Shown one piece after another: positions 7,655-43,635 of a stretch of DNA of 64,000 nucleotides. The stretch is from Clostridiales bacterium (GTDB lineage: Bacteria > Bacillota > Clostridia > Oscillospirales > CAG-272). Positions within the stretch are counted from its first letter, which is position 1. The number at the start of each line of letters is the position of its first letter. The DNA is taken from NCBI GenBank assembly GCA_022793655.1, contig JAAWDG010000014.1, positions 34,636 through 98,635 of the forward strand, given 5' to 3'. The notes under the pieces were generated by a model that was given only the letters and a program-made list of their open reading frames with translations, had not been told where the DNA came from and ran no database searches. The translations under genes and the position numbers were made by a program.

Positions 7655-8251
7655 CTATATATTTTGTTCGTTCATTTCGTCTAGCGTCATATCAAAGGCC
7701 GGCAGGAAGTTTTCCATAAAATAGTCTAATTCGGGGCAGCTTAAAGCAGAAAGACTGCGCAGGGTGGCGGCTTTTGCGTTTGTAAACTCAAGATTGCCGC
7801 TCCTTTCTTCAATCATGCATTTAATGAGTGCGGCCAGCTTGTCGGCGCATTTGATGATATGGTGCAGTTCTTTTTCTGTTTCTTCATAATGCAGAATCTC
7901 ATCATAAGCGGGCTTTAATTCTTCGGGCAGCTTGGATAAAAGCATGTGAATGGCTTGGGATTCTACCTGTTTGTAATTTTTTTTGGTGCTGTCATTAAAA
8001 TATTTAATGGGGGTGGGCAAATCGCCGGTAAAGACTTCGGGCAGGTCGTGGAAAAGCGCGTATACGACTGCTTTTTCGGCGTCATAGTGTTTATCAAAAA
8101 AAGTGTTGCCAATGGTGGCGAGCGCGTGGGTTAACACGGCAACGTCATTGACGTGGTCCGACAGGGTTTCTTGTTCTACACTGCGCATAAGGCCCCAGCG
8201 TTTTATATATTTTTGTCTGAATACAAGTGCATAAAAGCTGCTGCTCATCAC
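7655..8251 (-). CDS. yfbR: HD-domain 5'-deoxynucleotidase (YfbR family)
   Basis: Nearly collinear with E. coli YfbR: IKRWGLMR, ETLSDHV, ALFHDLPEVFTGDLPTPIKYFN, KCADKLAALIKC. Confidence 0.85.
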   Translation of the reverse strand: MMSSSFYALVFRQKYIKRWGLMRSVEQETLSDHVNDVAVLTHALATIGNTFFDKHYDAEKAVVYALFHDLPEVFTGDLPTPIKYFNDSTKKNYKQVESQAIHMLLSKLPEELKPAYDEILHYEETEKELHHIIKCADKLAALIKCMIEERSGNLEFTNAKAATLRSLSALSCPELDYFMENFLPAFDMTLDEMNEQNI

Positions 8252-8365
8252 TTGCCTCCTTATTCTTTCTGTTATTAGCGCACCATTTTTTTGGCATCAC
8301 CTTATGAAAAAACAGTGATGAAATAAATGACCGCTCTTGTATTATACCATATCTCTTTAGCTATC

Positions 8366-8457
8366 AAAAAGTGCGACATACCAGCGCAGCTGGAAGTCGG
8401 AATGTCATCCTTTTGGGTGGCAAGATAAACTTTAGAAACAAATCTTCGATTTGTTTC
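8366..8457 (+). repeat. degenerate copy of the structured repeat family
   Basis: CCAGC-gca-GCTGGAA hairpin (8381-8395), GATAAACTTT (8424-8433), then hairpin GAAACAAATC-ttc-GATTTGTTTC (8435-8457). A 12-nt direct repeat ATTATACCATAT occurs at 8341-8352 and 8458-8469. Confidence 0.4.
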
Positions 8458-8501
8458 ATTATACCATATAGCGCGTCCTCTGTAAAGAAAAGCGTTTTTA
8501 T

Positions 8502-9805: not shown

Positions 9806-10016
9806 TTCATAAGTATGAGTGGTTTTTCCTAAATATACATTTGCAAAAGCGATTTGCGTGTGTTAAAATAAGAAGCAGTCATAAGGCTTGTTCTTATCAC
9901 TGAAAAGACTAAATAAATCAATTTGAAAAAAGTTTGTGGCCTGTTTAGGCTGTGTGTCAATGTAGCAGAACGATAAAATATTTGGCAGATTAGGTAAAGA
10001 AAACAAGAGGCAGGGT

Positions 10017-13227: not shown

Positions 13228-13256
13228 TTGAAAAACAGGGTGGTTTAAGGTATAAT
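13228..13256 (+). promoter_or_regulatory. near-consensus sigma-A promoter of the asnS leader
   Basis: TTGAAA (13228-13233), 17-nt spacer, TATAAT (13251-13256). Confidence 0.6.
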
Positions 13257-13274
13257 AAAAAAAGACCGTTTGTA

Positions 13275-13357
13275 TAAGAAACCTGTGAATTTCTTAAAAA
13301 GTTTATCTTTTCGCCTTTACAAGCGAAATTTCGGCCAGGCCGGAACCGTTAAACTTT
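13275..13357 (+). repeat. single unit of the structured repeat family inside the asnS 5' leader
   Basis: TAAGAAA-cctgtgaa-TTTCTTA (13275-13296). Then AAAGTTTATC (13298-13307) / GTTAAACTTT (13348-13357) enclose TTTCGC..GCGAAA and TTCGG..CCGGAA hairpins. Confidence 0.5.
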
Positions 13358-13558
13358 AAAGTAACTTAAATCTCGCAGGATATACAATGCTATAGAGTTT
13401 TTTTAAAAACTTGCGGTTATCTTAGATTGCTGACACTTAGTTATATCATCCATGTGATTTATAGTGTTTACGAAAGCGAACCGGCATGTAAAATTTGAAC
13501 ATGGCTGCATGGCGTTTTTATCCGCAGACCATGTATGGGAAAGAGGATAGGATTTTAC

Positions 13559-14950
13559 ATGAACAAAATCGAGATTGAAAAGCTGTATCGCTCGCCGGAT
13601 CATTATGTCGGGCAGGTGATTACGGTGGCCGGCTGGGTGAGGAGCATACGCAGCAGCAACCAGTTTGGCTTTATTGAGCTGAATGACGGAAGCTGTTTTC
13701 GGGGATTGCAAATCGTTTTTGAAAACAGCCGGATTCCTAATTATAAAGAAGTGGCTTCGCAAAATAGCGGGACGGCTTTTGTGATTACGGGTTTGCTTAC
13801 GCTTACACCCGAGGCAAAACAGCCGTTTGAGTTACAAGCGCAATCCATTGTGATTGAGGGAGCTTCTGCGCCTGATTATCCGCTGCAAAAGAAGCGACAT
13901 TCGTTTGAATATTTGCGCACGATTGCCCATCTGCGGCCCCGTACGAATACGTTTAACGCGGTTTTTAGGGTGCGCAGCGAATGTGCTTTCGCCATTCATG
14001 AATTTTTTCATGAGCAGGGATTTGTCTATGTCCATACGCCGATTATTACGACGAGTGATTGCGAAGGCTCGTGCGATATGTTCCGTGTGACGACTTTTGC
14101 CGGGGACGGTCCGGTTTTGCCGGAGGGCGGCTTTGACTATGCCAACGATTTTTTTGGTAAAGAGGCCTATTTAACCGTGTCTGGACAGTTGGCGGCTGAG
14201 ACCTATGCCATGGCTTTTGGTAAAGTGTATACCTTTGGTCCGGCTTTTCGGGCTGAACATTCCAATACCCCTCGTCATGCCGCTGAATTTTGGATGGTCG
14301 AGCCGGAGATTGCGTTTGCTGATTTGGCGGATGATATGCGCTTGGCTGAAGATATGCTCAAGCATATTGTCAATCATTTGCTTGCACGCTGTCCGGCGGA
14401 ACTTGCTTTTTTTAATGAGCGCATTGACCCTACACTGCTTGACAGGTTAGAAAATATCAGAAAAAATGATTTTGCCCGCATCAGCTATACCGAGGCAATC
14501 GATTTACTCAAAAAAAGTGGAGAAAATTTTGCTTATGAACCGGTTTGGGGAAATGATCTGCAAACCGAGCATGAGCGGTATTTAACCGAGAAAATAGTGG
14601 GCCGGCCGGTGTTTGTGACCGATTGGCCGAAAGAAATAAAAGCCTTTTATATGCGCTTAAATGACGATGAAAAGACCGTCGCGGCCATGGACCTGTTAGT
14701 GCCCGGGGTGGGCGAGCTTATCGGCGGTTCACAAAGGGAAGAAAGAATCGACTATTTAGCCCGCAGTTATGAGCGTTTTGGGCTTTCGAGCGAGGCGTAT
14801 GATTGGTATACGGACCTTAGAAAATACGGCAGTGCCAGGCACGCCGGGTTTGGACTTGGTTTTGAACGGCTTGTTATGTATGTAACAGGCATGAATAATA
14901 TTAGAGATGTGGAGGCATATCCGAGGACGGTAGGCAACGCGGAGTATTAA
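13559..14950 (+). CDS. asnS: asparagine--tRNA ligase
   Basis: ATG 13559 follows AAGAGGA. It has an OB-fold N-terminus ([26 protein letters not shown]) and class II motifs ([37 protein letters not shown]). Confidence 0.9.
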
Positions 14951-19943: not shown

Positions 19944-19976
19944 GAAACGGCATATTTTTTGATCGTTCATACAAAT

Positions 19977-20016
19977 AAAACCCTTGCGGTAGTTCTGCCG
20001 CAAGGGTTTTATTTGT
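19977..20016. terminator. intrinsic terminator (secDF; usable from both strands)
   Basis: AAAACCCTTGCGG (19977-19989) / CCGCAAGGGTTTT (19998-20010), then ATTTGT. Confidence 0.8.
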
Positions 20017-20508: not shown

Positions 20509-20578
20509 AATAGCGGCATAACTGTGCTTTGTTTCTGCCTTATCATATTTTTTGCGCTATGCAGTGTAATTTTAAAAA

Positions 20579-20608
20579 GACCATGGCTCTGTTACAGGGG
20601 CCATGGTC
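20579..20608 (-). terminator. intrinsic terminator of the XRE gene (minus strand)
   Basis: GACCATGGC (20579-20587) / GCCATGGTC (20600-20608). On the minus strand it is followed by TTTTT. Confidence 0.6.
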
Positions 20609-20671
20609 CATTATATGCAGCATAGGGGCGTTTCCATACATAGAAGTCGTCAAATTTAATAAGGCGATGAA

Positions 20672-20914
20672 TTAGCCGTTAAATAAGGCGTCATAAGATA
20701 CCTGTAAAATTTTGCTAAGTTCACGTATTTCATAGTCGGTGATCCGACGTTTTTTTGTTTCAATACGTGTGATCATATTTTTATCCATGTCTAACCCGTT
20801 GCGCTGTAAAAATTCGGCAAAATCTCGCTGTGACATATCCATTTTTAATCGAATGTTACGAATATTGAAGCCAATTAAGTTTTTATTTTCTGTTTTTGTT
20901 GTCGAATTTGACAT
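20672..20914 (-). CDS. XRE-family helix-turn-helix transcriptional regulator (paralog 1)
   Basis: 80 aa. IRNIRLKMDMSQRDFAEFLQ...ITRIETKKRRITDYEIRELSKILQVSYDALF is a Cro/C1-type HTH. Confidence 0.8.
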   Translation of the reverse strand: MSNSTTKTENKNLIGFNIRNIRLKMDMSQRDFAEFLQRNGLDMDKNMITRIETKKRRITDYEIRELSKILQVSYDALFNG

Positions 20915-20936
20915 TTTTTTTCCCTCTTTCTTAATT

Positions 20937-21010
20937 TTGTCTCATTTTTTGCAATTTTTACTTGATTTTATCATGCGCTTATGGTATAATCGGTTGTAGA
21001 AATGAGACAA
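20937..21010. promoter_or_regulatory. putative operator pair upstream of XRE paralog 1
   Basis: Perfect 11-bp inverted repeat TTGTCTCATTT (20937-20947) / AAATGAGACAA (21000-21010). It brackets extended -10 like elements on both strands (TGATAAAAT on the minus strand, TATAAT on the + strand). Confidence 0.45.
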
Positions 21011-21011
21011 G

Positions 21012-21302
21012 TTACGTTTGCTTTTCATCATTTCCATCAATCAAATATTGATAAGAGACCTTGAAAAAACTGCATAAAGCCTTTATTTCAATATCTGTGA
21101 CAAAGCGTTCGTTATTTTCGATGCGCGTAATTATATTTCGGTCAATATCATAGCCGCAGAGTTGCAGTTTGGCTGCTAAAGCGCGCTGTGATAGTTTGTG
21201 CTTTGTGCGCAGTTCCAGGAGGCGGTCGCTGATTAAGTTTTTGTTTCCGTCTTCAGCACGCAGTCTGGCTGTGTTGTGTTTTTTCTTGTTCATTTTTAAC
21301 AC
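21012..21302 (-). CDS. XRE-family helix-turn-helix transcriptional regulator (paralog 2)
   Basis: 96 aa. LLELRTKHKLSQRALAAKLQ...ITRIENNERFVTDIEIKALCSFFKVSYQYLI aligns position for position with paralog 1. Confidence 0.8.
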   Translation of the reverse strand: MLKMNKKKHNTARLRAEDGNKNLISDRLLELRTKHKLSQRALAAKLQLCGYDIDRNIITRIENNERFVTDIEIKALCSFFKVSYQYLIDGNDEKQT

Positions 21303-21321
21303 CTCTTATTTTTTGATTTAT

Positions 21322-21394
21322 TTGGCTCATAATTAGCACCACTACTAATATATTAATTTATTTTTTATTTTAGTCGGTTGTAAAAGTGAGACAA
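21322..21394. promoter_or_regulatory. putative operator pair in the divergent XRE / AbrB-like intergenic region
   Basis: TTGGCTCATAA (21322-21332) and AAGTGAGACAA (21384-21394) have the same ~62-bp spacing as at 20937/21000. The 20-nt CGGTTGTAAAAGTGAGACAA (21375-21394) repeats 20991-21010 with 2 differences. Confidence 0.4.
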
Positions 21395-21423
21395 AAATAA
21401 ATTTTAGATGGTAGGGTCCAATA

Positions 21424-21690
21424 ATGATGTTGCGGATTTTGTGGATTGATAAGTTCGGACGCGTTTATTTGCCTGAAGATATACGAGAAACTTATCATTT
21501 ATATAAAGAAACTTATCTCGCGCTGCTTGAGGGCGAGGAAAATAGCCTTGTGCTTCGTTCCTACAAACCGGTATGTACGGTTTGCGGTTCAGACAAGGAT
21601 GTATCAATTTATAATAATACACCTTTTTGCGGAAAATGTTTGCGGAAACTTGACGTAATGCCTCCGCTTGAGAAAATTAAAGACGAATAA
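21424..21690 (+). CDS. AbrB/SpoVT-like DNA-binding protein with a C-terminal CxxC...CxxC zinc ribbon
   Basis: IDKFGRVYLPEDIRETYHL...SLVLRS fits the looped-hinge AbrB/MazE pattern. It is followed by CTVCGS...FCGKC. Confidence 0.6.
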   Translation: MMLRILWIDKFGRVYLPEDIRETYHLYKETYLALLEGEENSLVLRSYKPVCTVCGSDKDVSIYNNTPFCGKCLRKLDVMPPLEKIKDE

Positions 21691-21716
21691 AAACAAATTT
21701 TGTTTGACCAAGGGTA

Positions 21717-21756
21717 AAAGAGTAGACTTCTGATTTGAAGCCTACTCTTTTTAATT
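21717..21756 (+). terminator. intrinsic terminator
   Basis: AAAGAGTAG (21718-21726) / CTACTCTTT (21742-21750) with an inner CTTC/GAAG stem, followed by TTTAATTT. Confidence 0.6.
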
Positions 21757-22012
21757 TCCATTTTTAGGTACATATTCCAAAATAAGGTATATAGGTTATA
21801 TTTATTTGTTTTTTTGTTATTATAAATTGTATTGGGAAAACAAAAACGCGCGAAGATCACCCTAAATTGCCCGAATCACCAATTGATGGAATCGGTACTT
21901 TTTAAAAAGATACGAATAAATAAAATTAATACCGTAAAAATATAATGATAATGCGGAATTTGTCGAATTGAAAGTTGAGTTTTGCAAAAATTATTATACG
22001 TAGCGTCTCCAA

Positions 22013-22046
22013 TATTTGAAAAAATGAGCAATTATTTGCTCATTTT
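22013..22046 (-). terminator. intrinsic terminator of yihY (the stop codon lies inside the hairpin)
   Basis: AAAATGAGCAA (22021-22031) / TTGCTCATTTT (22036-22046). On the minus strand the stem is followed by TTTTTT. Confidence 0.65.
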
Positions 22047-24665: not shown

Positions 24666-24926
24666 CTAAGAGCAAATCATAGATTTGCTCTTAGTTATAC
24701 TACAAAATTTCCGCAAACCGAAAGTTTGCCGGTTCCGGCAAAGCCGGAATGGCGCTTGCAAAAGCGCAAAGGTAAACTTTCTAAGAGGAAACCATATGGT
24801 TTCCTCTTATTTATACGAAAACGATTCACTGAACTGGAAATTATGCGGTTCTGCCTATCGGCAGAATGCCGTTTGTGAAAACGGCAAGTGTAATTTCCTA
24901 AGAGCAAATCATAGATTTGCTCTTAT
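24666..24926 (+). repeat. tandem array A of the structured repeat family (hairpin, junction, hairpin, junction, hairpin)
   Basis: Hairpins at 24666-24694, 24781-24810 and 24898-24926 (the first and last share 28 identical nt). Junctions are closed by AAAGTTTGCC/GGTAAACTTT (24721-24780) and GGAAATTATG/TGTAATTTCC (24836-24898). Each encloses two hairpins. Confidence 0.7.
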
Positions 24927-24988
24927 TTTACCACACCAAAGCTAAAAACACAAGGCAGTAAAAAGTTCAAATAATCTTGGACAGACTC

Positions 24989-39709: not shown

Positions 39710-40519
39710 ATGAAAGTTGGCGTTATTGTACGGTATCAAAATATCGAGGAAGAGTTTGCATGGATGCAGGAACATGGCATTGACAATTGTCAGTTTTATA
39801 TGTTTCCCGATCAAATTTCGGATGAAAACGTGCAGCGTGTGTGCCGGCTGCGTGAAGAGTACGGCATCGAGATTACCTCGCTTGTTGGCATGTGGACAGG
39901 GGTGGCCGCTTGGAATTTTTCGGCGGGTCCGGTCACGCTTGGCTTGATCCCTGTGGCCTATAGAGACCGCCGTATGGCCGAAATGCGGGTGTATTGCGAT
40001 TTGGCCGCGCGCCTTGGTATCAAGGATGTCAGCTCGCACATGGGCTTTATTCCCGAGTATATGTATGACCCTGTTTATCGGGAGTGGATTCCGGCTATGC
40101 AGGATTTAATGAAATATTATGAGGCCAAGGATATCTATCTTGATTTTGAAACCGGTCAGGAAACGCCGATTACTATGTTGCGGGCCATTCAGGATATTGG
40201 CAGTGATCGGCTGGGCGTGAATTTTGACAGCGGCAATTTGATTTTGTATGGCAAAGCAAATCCAGTAGATGCATTAGATATTTTGGGGCCATATGTGCGC
40301 GGCGTGCATGCGAAAGACGCCTTATATCCGACCGATCCTGTTCATTTAGGTGAAGAAAAAGCCTTAGGTGAAGGCAAGGTGAATTTTGGCGCACTACTTG
40401 CAAAGCTTAGTGAAGTGGGCTATACCGGGGCGATCACCATTGAACGCGAGTGCGCGGGCGAAAAGGAACGAGAGGATATTTTAAAAGGCAAAGCTTTGTT
40501 GGATACGCTGTTAATGTAA
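39710..40519 (+). CDS. sugar phosphate isomerase/epimerase (xylose-isomerase-like TIM barrel)
   Basis: 269 aa. Motifs VSSHMGFIP, YLDFETGQE, GVNFDSGNLILYG, HAKD and TIERE. Confidence 0.75.
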   Translation: MKVGVIVRYQNIEEEFAWMQEHGIDNCQFYMFPDQISDENVQRVCRLREEYGIEITSLVGMWTGVAAWNFSAGPVTLGLIPVAYRDRRMAEMRVYCDLAARLGIKDVSSHMGFIPEYMYDPVYREWIPAMQDLMKYYEAKDIYLDFETGQETPITMLRAIQDIGSDRLGVNFDSGNLILYGKANPVDALDILGPYVRGVHAKDALYPTDPVHLGEEKALGEGKVNFGALLAKLSEVGYTGAITIERECAGEKEREDILKGKALLDTLLM

Positions 40520-40540
40520 CATATATTTTTTAGCTACCGG

Positions 40541-40850
40541 AAAGATTGGCTTGTCATCCCTGTTGGGTGACAAGTCAATCTTTCTAAGAATAATCCTTAC
40601 GGATTATTCTTATTATAACATAAAAATTTCAGCTCTCTCAAAGTTTATCGTTTCCAGCTTCGCTGGAATGCAGCCTTGTAGGCCGCAAGGTAAACTTTCT
40701 AAGAACAAACCATACGGTTTGTTCTTATTGTAACATAAAGTTTACCGCCTCCTCGAAATTTAACGTTGCCGATTTATCCGGCAGGCCGTGCAGACGTACT
40801 TGCACGGCCAGTTAAATTTCTTAAGAACAAGCTATGTAGCTTGTTCTTAT
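40541..40850 (+). repeat. tandem array C of the structured repeat family (long hairpin, then three conserved-flank hairpins alternating with two multi-stem junctions)
   Basis: Long hairpin at 40541-40583. Conserved-flank hairpins at 40584-40613, 40699-40728 and 40821-40850. Junctions closed by AAAGTTTATC/GGTAAACTTT (40640-40698) and GAAATTTAAC/GTTAAATTTC (40755-40820). Confidence 0.7.
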
Positions 40851-40859
40851 TGTCTGCAC

Positions 40860-40893
40860 AAAAAACAAACGCTTTTTTCGCGTTTGTTTTTTT
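40860..40893 (+). terminator. rho-independent terminator
   Basis: AAAAACAAACGC (40861-40872) / GCGTTTGTTTTT (40880-40891) with a T-run. Confidence 0.8.
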
Positions 40894-41092: not shown

Positions 41093-42391
41093 ATGGCAAT
41101 GTACAACAAAAAAACGATTGAAGATATTGACGTAAAAGGCAAAAGAGTGCTGGTACGGTGTGACTTTAACGTGCCCATGAAAGACGGCGTCATTACAGAT
41201 GACAAGCGCATTACAGGCGCATTTCCTACCGTAAAATATTTGGCGGATCAGGGCGCTAAGGTGATTTTATGTTCACATATGGGCCGTCCGCACAATATCA
41301 TGAATGCGGAAATCAAGCTAAGTAAAAAAGAAAAGAAAAAGATTGAGGCAATGCCCGCAGACGAGCAAGAGGCCGCTAAGGCCGCAGCGCTTGCAGCCGC
41401 CGCTGGCGACAATGTGAAATTTTCGTTAGCTCCGGCCGCTAAGAGACTCTCTGAATTGCTCGGCAAAGAAGTGGCTATGGCTAAAGATGTCATCGGACCA
41501 GACGCAAAGGCGAAAGCCGCGGCCCTCACCGACGGCGACGTGATGATGATTGAAAATGTTCGTTTCCATAGCGAAGAGGAAGCAAACGATCCTGCTTTTG
41601 CAAAAGAGCTTGCTTCAATGGCTGATATTTATGTAAATGATGCTTTTGGCACCGCTCACAGAGCGCATGCTTCTACCGCTGGTGTGGCTGATTATCTGCC
41701 AGCTGTTTGCGGTTATTTGATTCAAAAGGAAATTTCGATCATGGGCGGCGCATTAGCTGAGCCCAAGAGACCTTTTGTCGCTATTTTGGGCGGCGCTAAA
41801 GTGTCGGATAAAATTGGCGTTATCAATAATCTGCTTGAAAAGGTAGATACGCTGATTATCGGCGGCGGTATGGCTTATACTTTCTTTAAAGCACGCGGCA
41901 GAGAGGTCGGTTCTTCTCTTTGCGAGACCGACAAGATCGATTTGGCCTGCGAGTTGATGGAAAAGGCACGTGCGAAAGGTGTTAATTTCTTATTGCCTGT
42001 TGATAATATCATCGGCAGAGAGTATAAAGAAGATACCAGCTGCATGAGAATGTATTCAGATTCGATTCCAGACGGTTGGATGGGTCTCGATATCGGCCCG
42101 AAAACACAGGAGCTGTTTTCAAAGTCCATTGAAGGGGCTGGCACTGTGATTTGGAATGGTCCTATGGGCGTTTCCGAATGGGAGAATTTTGCTTCGGGCA
42201 CCATCAGCGTGGCAAAGGCTGTGGCTGATTCGGGCGCGGTATCGATCATTGGCGGCGGCGATTCAGCAGCAGCGGTTGAAAAGCTGGGCTTTGCGGATAA
42301 GATGACGCATATTTCTACCGGCGGCGGCGCATCCCTTGAATTTTTAGAGGGAAAAGAGCTGCCCGGCATTGCTTGCTTAAACGACAAATAA
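41093..42391 (+). CDS. pgk: phosphoglycerate kinase (with a ~34-aa low-complexity insertion)
   Basis: [32 protein letters not shown] and GGGDSAAA motifs. 432 aa versus the usual ~395. Confidence 0.9.
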
Positions 42392-42479
42392 AAGAGAATA
42401 AAAACCAAAAGGCCAAAAATGAACCGCGTGATGGCGATTCATTTTTGGCTGGTTTGTGTACATAGGGAGAAAAAGAATC

Positions 42480-43250: not shown

Positions 43251-43263
43251 AACGAAAAAATAT

Positions 43264-43325
43264 AAAAGCAAGCTTCTTTGTATGATGGCGTTAATCGTGC
43301 GTGCAAAGGCTTGCTTTTTTATTTT
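43264..43325 (+). terminator. intrinsic terminator of pgk-tpiA
   Basis: AAAAGCAAGC (43264-43273) / GCTTGCTTTT (43309-43318) with an inner CTTTG/CAAAG stem, then TTTTTTATTTTT. Confidence 0.6.
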
Positions 43326-43635
43326 TATCAGATGTAGTGACATGGCTGTTGTCACTCTATAAAAGGCAGACTGTTCATCATATACCAAAAGAAACATGAC
43401 AAAATTCGGATTGTTTTGCGACCGTATGGTGCTATAATCGGCATGTATGTGATAAGCGATATAAGATGTCTTGTTTTGATTGCCTATTAAAATTGGGTGT
43501 GGAGAGGAAAGGTACAAGTCTGATGATGGCACAGGACGGTTGTCTCTTGGCTGCCTTTTTTAGTGAGAATTCCTCTGTGTATATGAAAATTATACGAAGA
43601 TTGCTTGGAGCTGTTCGTTCCTATGCGCTGGCGGG

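Follow-up and report, generated by a model that had tools for sequence, protein, structure and literature searches.

A three-unit array between an isomerase-like gene and pgk belongs to a dispersed, hairpin-rich repeat family in Clostridia

The region upstream of pgk in the 64,000-nt stretch of DNA analysed here (the window) carries array C (40540-40849), in which a hairpin-rich repeat that had not been catalogued before is present three times; further copies are dispersed in this uncultured Clostridia genome and in two related ones. The three units are arranged head-to-tail, with unit starts 115 and 122 nt apart, and are followed by a canonical intrinsic terminator. Promoter and terminator calls are consensus matches throughout, and R1 scores refer to a covariance model built from eight units of the repeat. 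The features of the locus are the following:

39710-40519: upstream ORF (isomerase gene), AP_endonuc_2/xylose-isomerase-like TIM barrel
40509-40539, + strand: linker-like left end of array C (TGTTAATGTAACATATATTTTTTAGCTACCG); direct-repeat family D3, in which 40511-40547 aligns with both internal linkers
40540-40584, + strand: body of unit C0, one 20-bp hairpin (inverted repeat I2/I3)
40585-40612, + strand: hairpin A of C0, TAAGAATAATCC-ttac-GGATTATTCTTA
40613-40639, + strand: linker 1 (TTATAACATAAAAATTTCAGCTCTCTC), with the reverse complement TTGAGA-18-TGnTATAAT
40640-40698, + strand: three-way junction of unit C1 (MFE folds; R1 94.7 bits)
40700-40727, + strand: hairpin A of C1, TAAGAACAAACC-atac-GGTTTGTTCTTA
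40728-40754, + strand: linker 2, including an orphan P1 5' half-site, AAAGTTTACC (40737-40746)
40755-40820, + strand: three-way junction of unit C2 (inverted repeat I10, MFE folds; R1 83.1 bits)
40822-40849, + strand: hairpin A of C2, TAAGAACAAGCTA-TAGCTTGTTCTTA
40860-40892, + strand: canonical intrinsic terminator (consensus match), closing the isomerase transcription unit, outside the repeat
41093-42391: pgk, the downstream neighbour of array C

A complete unit is about 115-120 nt long and consists of a 27-32 nt linker with the pattern TTATTRTAACATAAA...CTCYTC, a junction in which stem P1 (GAAAGTTT.../...AAACTTTC) encloses one or both of two variable hairpins, P2 and P3, and hairpin A, a stem of 12 bp (TAAGA...TCTTA) that directly abuts P1. 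In C1, P1 is formed by 40640-40649/40689-40698 and P2 by 40652-40658/40662-40668, with P3 lying within 40669-40687. The corresponding stems of C2 are 40755-40764/40811-40820 (P1), 40767-40771/40779-40783 (P2), and 40784-40793/40800-40809 (P3). The body of C0 is equivalent to a P1 fused to a P3-like apex, with P2 missing: its long hairpin has arms of 20 nt (40540-40559 and 40565-40584) that are 90% complementary, its R1 score is 53.8 bits (40537-40617), and its apex (GTCATCC..GGGTGAC) is homologous to P3 of a degenerate copy, D1, found elsewhere in the window (8403-8421). Each of the three hairpin A copies has perfect arms of 12-13 nt. An earlier, sequence-only reading of this region had placed the coordinates, stems, hairpins, and half-site correctly throughout, as judged by an inverted-repeat search and MFE folds, and the two junctions that it described, each enclosing two hairpins, are present in the per-unit MFE folds. 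The orphan half-site (40737-40746) can also pair with 40689-40698 (inverted repeat I9), and this alternative pairing is preferred by the MFE fold of the whole region.

The left end of the array reaches into the isomerase gene, where a linker-like copy, TTAATGTAACATA, starting at 40511 overlaps the stop codon (40517-40519). No terminator was predicted between the stop codon (40519) and array C, the first canonical one being that at 40860-40892; it is thus most likely that the array is co-transcribed with the isomerase gene as a structured 3'UTR of about 330 nt. The stem of this terminator, AAAAAACAAACGC, resembles hairpin A (repeats D4, I11, and I12). The terminator consensus scan called 40860-40892 but passed over every hairpin A copy of array C, and it called hairpin B0 only on the minus strand. 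A T-rich tail, TTCTTATT, comes after hairpin A; it would give a U-rich tract if the foot of the stem were unzipped.

Further copies of the repeat were found at four other sites in the window, one of them inverted:

24667-24925, + strand: array B, in the order hairpin A, linker, junction, hairpin A, linker, junction, hairpin A
13270-13361, - strand: copy A1, a single inverted copy (R1 72.7 bits, minus strand)
8364-8462, + strand: degenerate copy D1 (R1 24.2 bits, E = 0.006)
9869-9896, unstranded: solitary imperfect hairpin A, TAAGAAGCAGTC-ataa-GGCTTGTTCTTA

In array B, where the two units scored 98.5 and 93.1 bits with R1, the first hairpin A is identical to the last. Copy A1 is located 3' of a predicted + strand promoter (13228-13256) and 5' of an Asn/Asp-tRNA synthetase-like gene (13535-14950), and D1 is flanked on both sides by linker-like sequence (8338-8365 and 8455-8485). 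Over the whole window, R1 reported six units with strong scores (53.8-98.5 bits) and a seventh with a weak one (24.2 bits) at four loci (8364-8462, 13270-13361 on the minus strand, 24717-24930, and 40537-40854), and gave no match in about 470 kb of unrelated DNA carrying the same 19-nt seed. The pattern TAAGAA-N16-TTCTTAT had eight strand-matches versus 0.09 expected. Altogether, about 10 copies of hairpin A are present at five loci in 64 kb, and all of them are extragenic except for overlaps with stop codons. The units of the window are mutually 54-75% identical; two units of one array are not more alike than two units of different arrays, and the window units are as distant from each other as from the units of a second carrier genome, the MAG ABMPRH_136_2 (for example, 72% between B1 and L050b).

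The sequence examined from carriers amounts to about 64 kb for the source genome and about 50 kb for the two others. The pgk product is 100% identical to a protein of a Clostridiales MAG, and its nearest named relatives belong to Ruminococcaceae/Oscillospiraceae-type organisms. A seed scan of one genome per GTDB species returned 66 matches, of which three were real, and all three belonged to ABMPRH_136_2 (loci L021, L042, and L050), with R1 units at L042 and L050. The third carrier, also with R1 units, was found by walking from the dapB gene of ABMPRH to the Logan assemblies SRR29646877/8 (L107/L108). Another Logan contig, L067, ends inside the first hairpin A. A seed scan of JGI metagenomes gave two matches, both due to chance. 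A phage or plasmid origin was rejected, as there was no true match in IMG/VR and no blastn match in phage and plasmid collections. We found no relevant description of such a Clostridia repeat in the literature beyond a general RAYT/BIME paper.

Comparison of related loci showed that copy number and sequence change quickly in these arrays and that the family is absent from the syntenic sites of relatives. In relatives whose pgk is 84-89% identical, the spacer upstream of pgk is 80-150 nt long, the upstream genes are different, and no copy of the family is present. In ABMPRH (L050), an array lies between dapB and dapF. The L107 locus, with 93% DapB identity, also has an array at dapB-dapF, with about 2 units versus 3.5 in L050 and with a very different sequence (31% G+C), and in its hairpin A, TAAGA/TCTTA has become TAATA/TATTA through a double compensatory change. 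At four further loci (L112, L110, L113, and L117), dapB overlaps or abuts dapF or lysA and there is no array. The gain and loss of units, previously suggested from the orphan half-site, are supported by the differences between these orthologous arrays. The units of L050 are mutually 87-96% identical, which indicates a recent local duplication. Within arrays B, C, L050, and L107, every unit runs head-to-tail in the same strand orientation. As at the isomerase gene, ends of genes are found within the repeats: the dapB stop codon lies within hairpin A, and in L107 the stop codon of a DUF4097 gene, unrelated to the isomerase gene, lies within ATTGTAACATAA, on the GTAACATAA motif shared with the left linker of array C.

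The predicted RNA fold of array C has an MFE of -158.5 kcal/mol, versus -77.2 +/- 5.1 for shuffled sequences (z = -16). The minus strand reaches -160.7 kcal/mol (z = -15.7), and DNA energy parameters gave similar z values on both strands (-15.2 and -15.8). In a MAFFT alignment of eight units, which was not fitted to the structure, 91.1% of the cells were paired and both sides had changed in 21 of the 37 pairs; the covariation score was 0.437, versus 0.04-0.11 with the partners slid, and was reached by none of 500 shuffles. The R1-fitted alignment of 13 units, which leans towards the structure, gave 95.8% of cells paired, both sides changed in 29 of 37 pairs, and a covariation score of 0.490 (0/500 shuffles). 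The proposal that tandem structured units had accumulated compensatory changes in their stems is therefore borne out in both alignments, and the covariance model that had been suggested as a check, once built, found units in the window and in relatives. Since 91-96% of pairs are kept at a sequence identity of only 54-75%, these results argue for long-term selection for the fold rather than a recent selfish spread.

The conserved bases lie in the feet of the stems (AAACTTTC-TAAGA, TCTTA, and CG-GTT). A 13-mer, AAACTTTCTAAGA, is conserved at the junction of two stems, the other conservation being in hairpin feet. Among the units compared, no loop or junction nucleotide was conserved, and loops (3 to 8 nt) and junctions vary in sequence and length. 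Conservation in stem feet is the pattern of REPs and IS ends, not that of riboswitches or ribozymes.

The sequence-only reading had favoured selection on a plus-strand RNA fold over a DNA palindrome, but neither strand folds better than the other, whether as RNA or as DNA. It had also drawn on the wobble pairs G40549.T40575 and T40648.G40690, which are indeed G.T on the + strand. Raw counts across the units gave 27 G.T versus 10 A.C; two alignment positions account for many of the G.T wobbles, which are thus largely not independent events, the wobble positions being mostly shared by descent. Moreover, the hairpins of L050 have the opposite polarity, with C.A on the element strand and hence G.T on the other strand.

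Orientation was assessed at seven independent loci. In co-directional gene pairs, only array C is sense, and three loci are antisense: A1, L042, and the L050/L107 dapB-dapF array, which lies antisense inside a dapA-dapB-dapF operon. Copies in both orientations relative to transcription, which had been named beforehand as grounds for refuting the plus-strand RNA proposal, are thus what was observed. D1, B, and L021 occupy divergent spacers; in D1 and B, the element core is flanked by predicted divergent promoters (consensus matches), the promoters of both neighbours apparently lying outside it. No bias relative to GC skew was seen, three loci being on the G-rich strand, as many on the C-rich strand, and one ambiguous. 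Promoter scans of the window loci found no conserved promoter upstream of the units. Among the earlier proposals, therefore, the tandem array, its compensatory changes, the lack of a known RNA family, and the turnover of units are supported, and selection on a plus-strand RNA fold is not.

A strand asymmetry does exist. In 10 of the 14 units, stability was greater for the element strand than for its complement, and at pairs 16-37 and 13-70 G.U occurs more often than any other state. This asymmetry is modest and follows the orientation of the element, not host transcription. The element strand may therefore fold, as ssDNA or as RNA. A function in host mRNA fits the asymmetry no better, and perhaps less well, than an ssDNA intermediate or a transcript borne by the element.

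The repeat was compared with known elements. A search of the whole window against Rfam 15 gave no match at gathering thresholds, and E-value scans of array C, A1, and array B gave only chance-level matches, the best being mir-5985 (23.5 bits versus a threshold of 100). The earlier impression that no known RNA family was involved is thus confirmed, and hammerhead and other ribozymes, T-boxes, and riboswitches are ruled out by these scans; a T-box had been considered as A1 lies in the leader of an aminoacyl-tRNA synthetase-like gene. A unit does resemble a purine-riboswitch-like aptamer followed by a terminator, in that P1 closes two hairpins and a terminator-like stem-loop follows at once. It differs in having no conserved junction or loop nucleotides, loops of variable length, and no Rfam match, and in its occurrence in arrays, in 3'UTRs, antisense to genes, and in predicted untranscribed spacers.

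As had also been judged from the sequence, array C is neither a CRISPR array nor a known MITE, the repeats being diverged and terminal inverted repeats absent. Regarding CRISPR, identity between units is only 77-79% even in the conserved part, the stretches in the place of spacers are homologous and structured and can pair with the repeat, and no cas domain was found in the ORFs scanned. Regarding MITEs, the left end (the linker, ATTRTAAC...) does not recur in inverted form at the right end (...TCTTA). In single copies, a whole hairpin A is present at just one of the two ends, and this complete hairpin at one end with none at the other also argues against hairpin A being the junction of two elements bearing terminal inverted repeats. 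Among the flanks of the copies, only AT(T/A) recurs, and the sequence there is AT-rich.

Integron attC sites of the long VCR type share with the repeat a closing stem around a branched apex, a strand-specific fold, and tandem arrays, and unit C2, alone among the units, reads ATTTAAC...GTTAAAT, like R''/R' boxes. This identity was rejected: the GTTRRRY/RYYYAAC boxes are not conserved in other units (GGTAAAC, GTGTAAT, GATAAAC, and GTCAAAC), P1 is a clean duplex without extrahelical bases, a spacing of 115-122 nt leaves no room for a cassette, and no integrase was found in the window ORFs scanned. A type III toxin-antitoxin (ToxI-like) array does not fit a downstream gene that is pgk, nor units that are diverged and a family that is dispersed. 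A retron ncRNA, brought to mind by a conserved CG after the 5' arm of P1, was discarded as there is no reverse transcriptase. Finally, small ORFs of 60 and 86 amino acids run across arrays C and B, but units of 115 and 122 nt break the frame, and the substitutions are compensatory in stems, not synonymous, which excludes a coding repeat.

The repeat behaves more like a REP/BIME- or BOX-type element than like a dedicated plus-strand RNA gene: the family is dispersed, occurs in either orientation, forms head-to-tail arrays, and keeps its fold by compensatory changes. In our analysis, there is about an even chance that array C belongs to a genomic repeat family confined to this lineage, which resembles REP/BIME or BOX in function and whose structure is maintained. 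Such a repeat would spread and expand at the DNA level, possibly through an enzyme that, like RAYT or IS200/IS605 transposases, recognises the conserved feet of the hairpins in single-stranded DNA, or through slippage or unequal recombination between hairpins. Hairpin-templated correction of quasi-palindromes may help to keep the stems paired. The effect at this locus would probably be a by-product of structure, the upstream mRNA being shielded from 3' exonucleases; alternatively, or in addition, partial termination could insulate pgk.

BOX elements of Streptococcus pneumoniae are modular intergenic repeats of a Firmicute, with a tandemly variable middle module and a stable predicted structure; they occur in either orientation, have no transposase of their own, and are built from distinct A, B, and C modules. 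By description, the present repeat is similar in being modular, structured, found in either orientation, and devoid of its own transposase, and it differs in having a repeated unit of three-way junction plus hairpin instead of A/B/C modules; no sequence relationship is expected.

The likeness to REP/BIME is more extensive. BIMEs form regular, species-specific clusters in which palindromes are preserved by complementary mutations and gene 3' ends are captured into inter-REP segments (Nunvar et al. 2010, PMC2817692). Like them, the present copies are extragenic, dispersed, and clustered as regularly spaced palindromic units, often in 3'UTRs ahead of terminators. They are species-specific and vary in length between relatives, as seen in the empty syntenic sites and the differing dapB-dapF arrays; complementary mutations preserve their palindromes, arrays include gene 3' ends, and the hairpin foot is conserved. 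They differ in being composite modules of about 115 nt rather than palindromes of 20-40 nt, in lacking a conserved 5' GTAG-type motif, and in belonging to an uncultured Clostridia lineage rather than a proteobacterium. REP families are expected to exceed 100 copies per genome; here, the count is about 10 hairpin A copies at five loci within 64 kb. In addition, REPs in BIME clusters alternate in orientation, whereas the units here are head-to-tail, and no RAYT (IS200/IS605-like Y1) was found among the window ORFs scanned or the called genes of the relatives' loci. The family thus works like REP/BIME without being assignable to that class.

Several observations argue against a REP/BIME- or BOX-like repeat. 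No transposase or integrase domain was found in about 45 window ORFs scanned, and no terminal inverted repeats or clear target-site duplications were seen. The wide divergence of the window units, combined with the retention of their pairs, likewise speaks for long-term selection on the fold and not for a recent selfish spread. Besides the head-to-tail arrangement, unlike that of BIMEs, the 10/14 strand asymmetry and the G.U preference hint at a strand-specific fold, which would not be expected from a purely double-stranded explanation.

Repeats of the REP/BIME type are well studied in proteobacteria and poorly documented in Clostridia, especially in uncultured gut- or rumen-type lineages. The composite unit, with a three-way junction beside a hairpin and head-to-tail repetition, is unusual, and so is the cleanness of its structural covariation in units so deeply diverged in sequence. 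Such a family may serve as a strain-typing marker and as a model for studying how the folding of palindromic repeats is preserved in genomes; it may also be a source of mis-assembly and a recurrent false positive in searches for novel ncRNAs.

A tentative alternative, well short of probable, is that the fold is used on the element's own strand regardless of host genes, either as a new class of structured RNA or as the substrate of an ssDNA transposase. Use on that strand would explain why more than 90% of pairs are kept at 54-75% identity, why G.U prevails at two positions, and why the element strand is the more stable one even at antisense loci. In the RNA form, three-way junctions with terminator-like hairpins could be produced in tandem multicopy from cryptic promoters of the element; in the ssDNA form, the repeat could be the substrate of a putative hairpin-recognising transposase in Clostridia. 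A cognate enzyme or an element-strand transcript, if existing, would point to a new class of mobile element or RNA.

More narrowly, each unit could form a strand-specific structured RNA, with a three-way junction and a terminator-like hairpin, acting in cis as a 3'UTR or leader element or as a multicopy small RNA. The strong covariation, the element-strand stability, the recurrent G.U pairs, and the T-rich tail after hairpin A are all consistent with this, as is the position of array C inside a transcription unit upstream of a real terminator, and the alternative pairing of 40689-40698 with 40737-40746 is reminiscent of a switch. We nevertheless consider it rather unlikely. The switch-like half-site occurs in only one unit, three of the four informative loci are antisense, including the array within the dap operon, and D1 and B lie between predicted divergent promoters. 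Nor is there a conserved promoter, a conserved loop or junction nucleotide, or an Rfam match, and the wobbles are mostly inherited and, in L050, of opposite polarity.

It is distinctly unlikely, in our view, that the repeat is a non-autonomous ssDNA transposon, in the manner of IS200/IS605 PATEs or REP/RAYT, with element-strand hairpins serving as the substrate of a Y1/HUH enzyme encoded elsewhere; tandem arrays would then arise as each unit regenerates a target beside hairpin A. The species-specific distribution and fast turnover agree with such a transposon, the strand asymmetry follows the element and not host genes, and conservation is confined to hairpin feet and the 13-mer. That units of the same array are no more alike than others would fit independent insertions beside existing copies. 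Against this, neither the window nor the relatives' loci examined yielded a Y1 transposase, no cleavage or target tetranucleotide could be derived from the boundaries, and there was no replication-strand bias over six loci, whereas IS200/IS605 insertions are biased.

Lastly, a regulatory DNA cassette, in which the reverse complement of the linker would be an outward promoter with an extended -10, as in Correia elements, and hairpin A a weak bidirectional terminator, so that the repeats rewire the expression of neighbours, is very improbable, given that only two linkers have a usable -35 element, the linkers of array B and A1 lack the TG motif, and those of L050 and L107 are unrelated in sequence. 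Its best support is a minus-strand promoter-like site in array C (40641->40612, TTGAGA-18-TGtTATAAT; 11/12 matches, extended -10), together with TTGATA-15-TGgTATAAT in the left linker of D1, facing a yfbR-like gene whose start codon is about 85 nt further, and TGnTA(T/C)A(A/T)T on the reverse strand in five of the eight window linkers (by eye). As the linkers are AT-rich, chance promoter matches are likely. The array C region contains nine promoter-like matches, versus 2.3 in shuffled sequences, spread over both strands.

The linker of the dispersed repeat, 27-32 nt of each unit, carries a motif, (A/T)TGTAACATA, that provides the stop codon of two unrelated genes from two organisms:

6440-6460 of L107, a Logan contig of a related carrier organism: end of a DUF4097 gene
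40511-40523 of the window: end of the isomerase gene

The repeat may rewrite C-termini; alternatively, it may have captured the end of a gene. The only other contig found with an identical isomerase, L067 (Logan, SRR11195287), terminates exactly within the first hairpin A, the TAAGA...TCTTA stem-loop of the unit (...ctttctaagaata). Short-read assemblies are probably broken by the repeats.

Read as its reverse complement, the linker resembles an extended -10 sigma-70 promoter at two sites:

40612-40641, minus strand: promoter-like linker site, TTGAGA-18-TGtTATAAT
8341-8367, minus strand: promoter-like linker site, TTGATA-15-TGgTATAAT

The second points toward a yfbR-like gene with its start codon at 8251 and could be the promoter of that gene.

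A leader of about 280 nt precedes the Asn/Asp-tRNA synthetase-like gene (13535-14950) and lies downstream of a strong promoter-like site (region 13228-13535). No T-box was detectable in this leader; it contains instead a copy of the repeat in inverted orientation.

Three other palindromic elements were noted:

42412-42449: hairpin with 16-nt arms, within the 64-nt pgk-tpi spacer
43256-43326: inverted repeat with 18-nt arms, A/T-flanked, after tpi
19971-20016: inverted repeat with 22-nt arms, 95% complementary, with A- and T-tracts, in the spacer where the secF-like and TspO genes converge

Neither the pgk-tpi hairpin nor the inverted repeat after tpi belongs to the repeat family. The latter looks like a bidirectional terminator, as does the inverted repeat between secF-like and TspO.

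One stretch of about 1.5 kb holds no ORF of at least 100 aa, and its G+C content of 0.357 is the minimum of the window, compared with about 0.46:

20509-22031: ORF-poor, low-G+C stretch, flanked by the TspO gene and a BrkB-like gene

Rfam gave no match in this stretch. The window's first large ORF (344-2269) encodes a P22-like/SU10 phage portal domain (E = 5e-19), so a prophage or phage remnant probably ends at the window's left edge.
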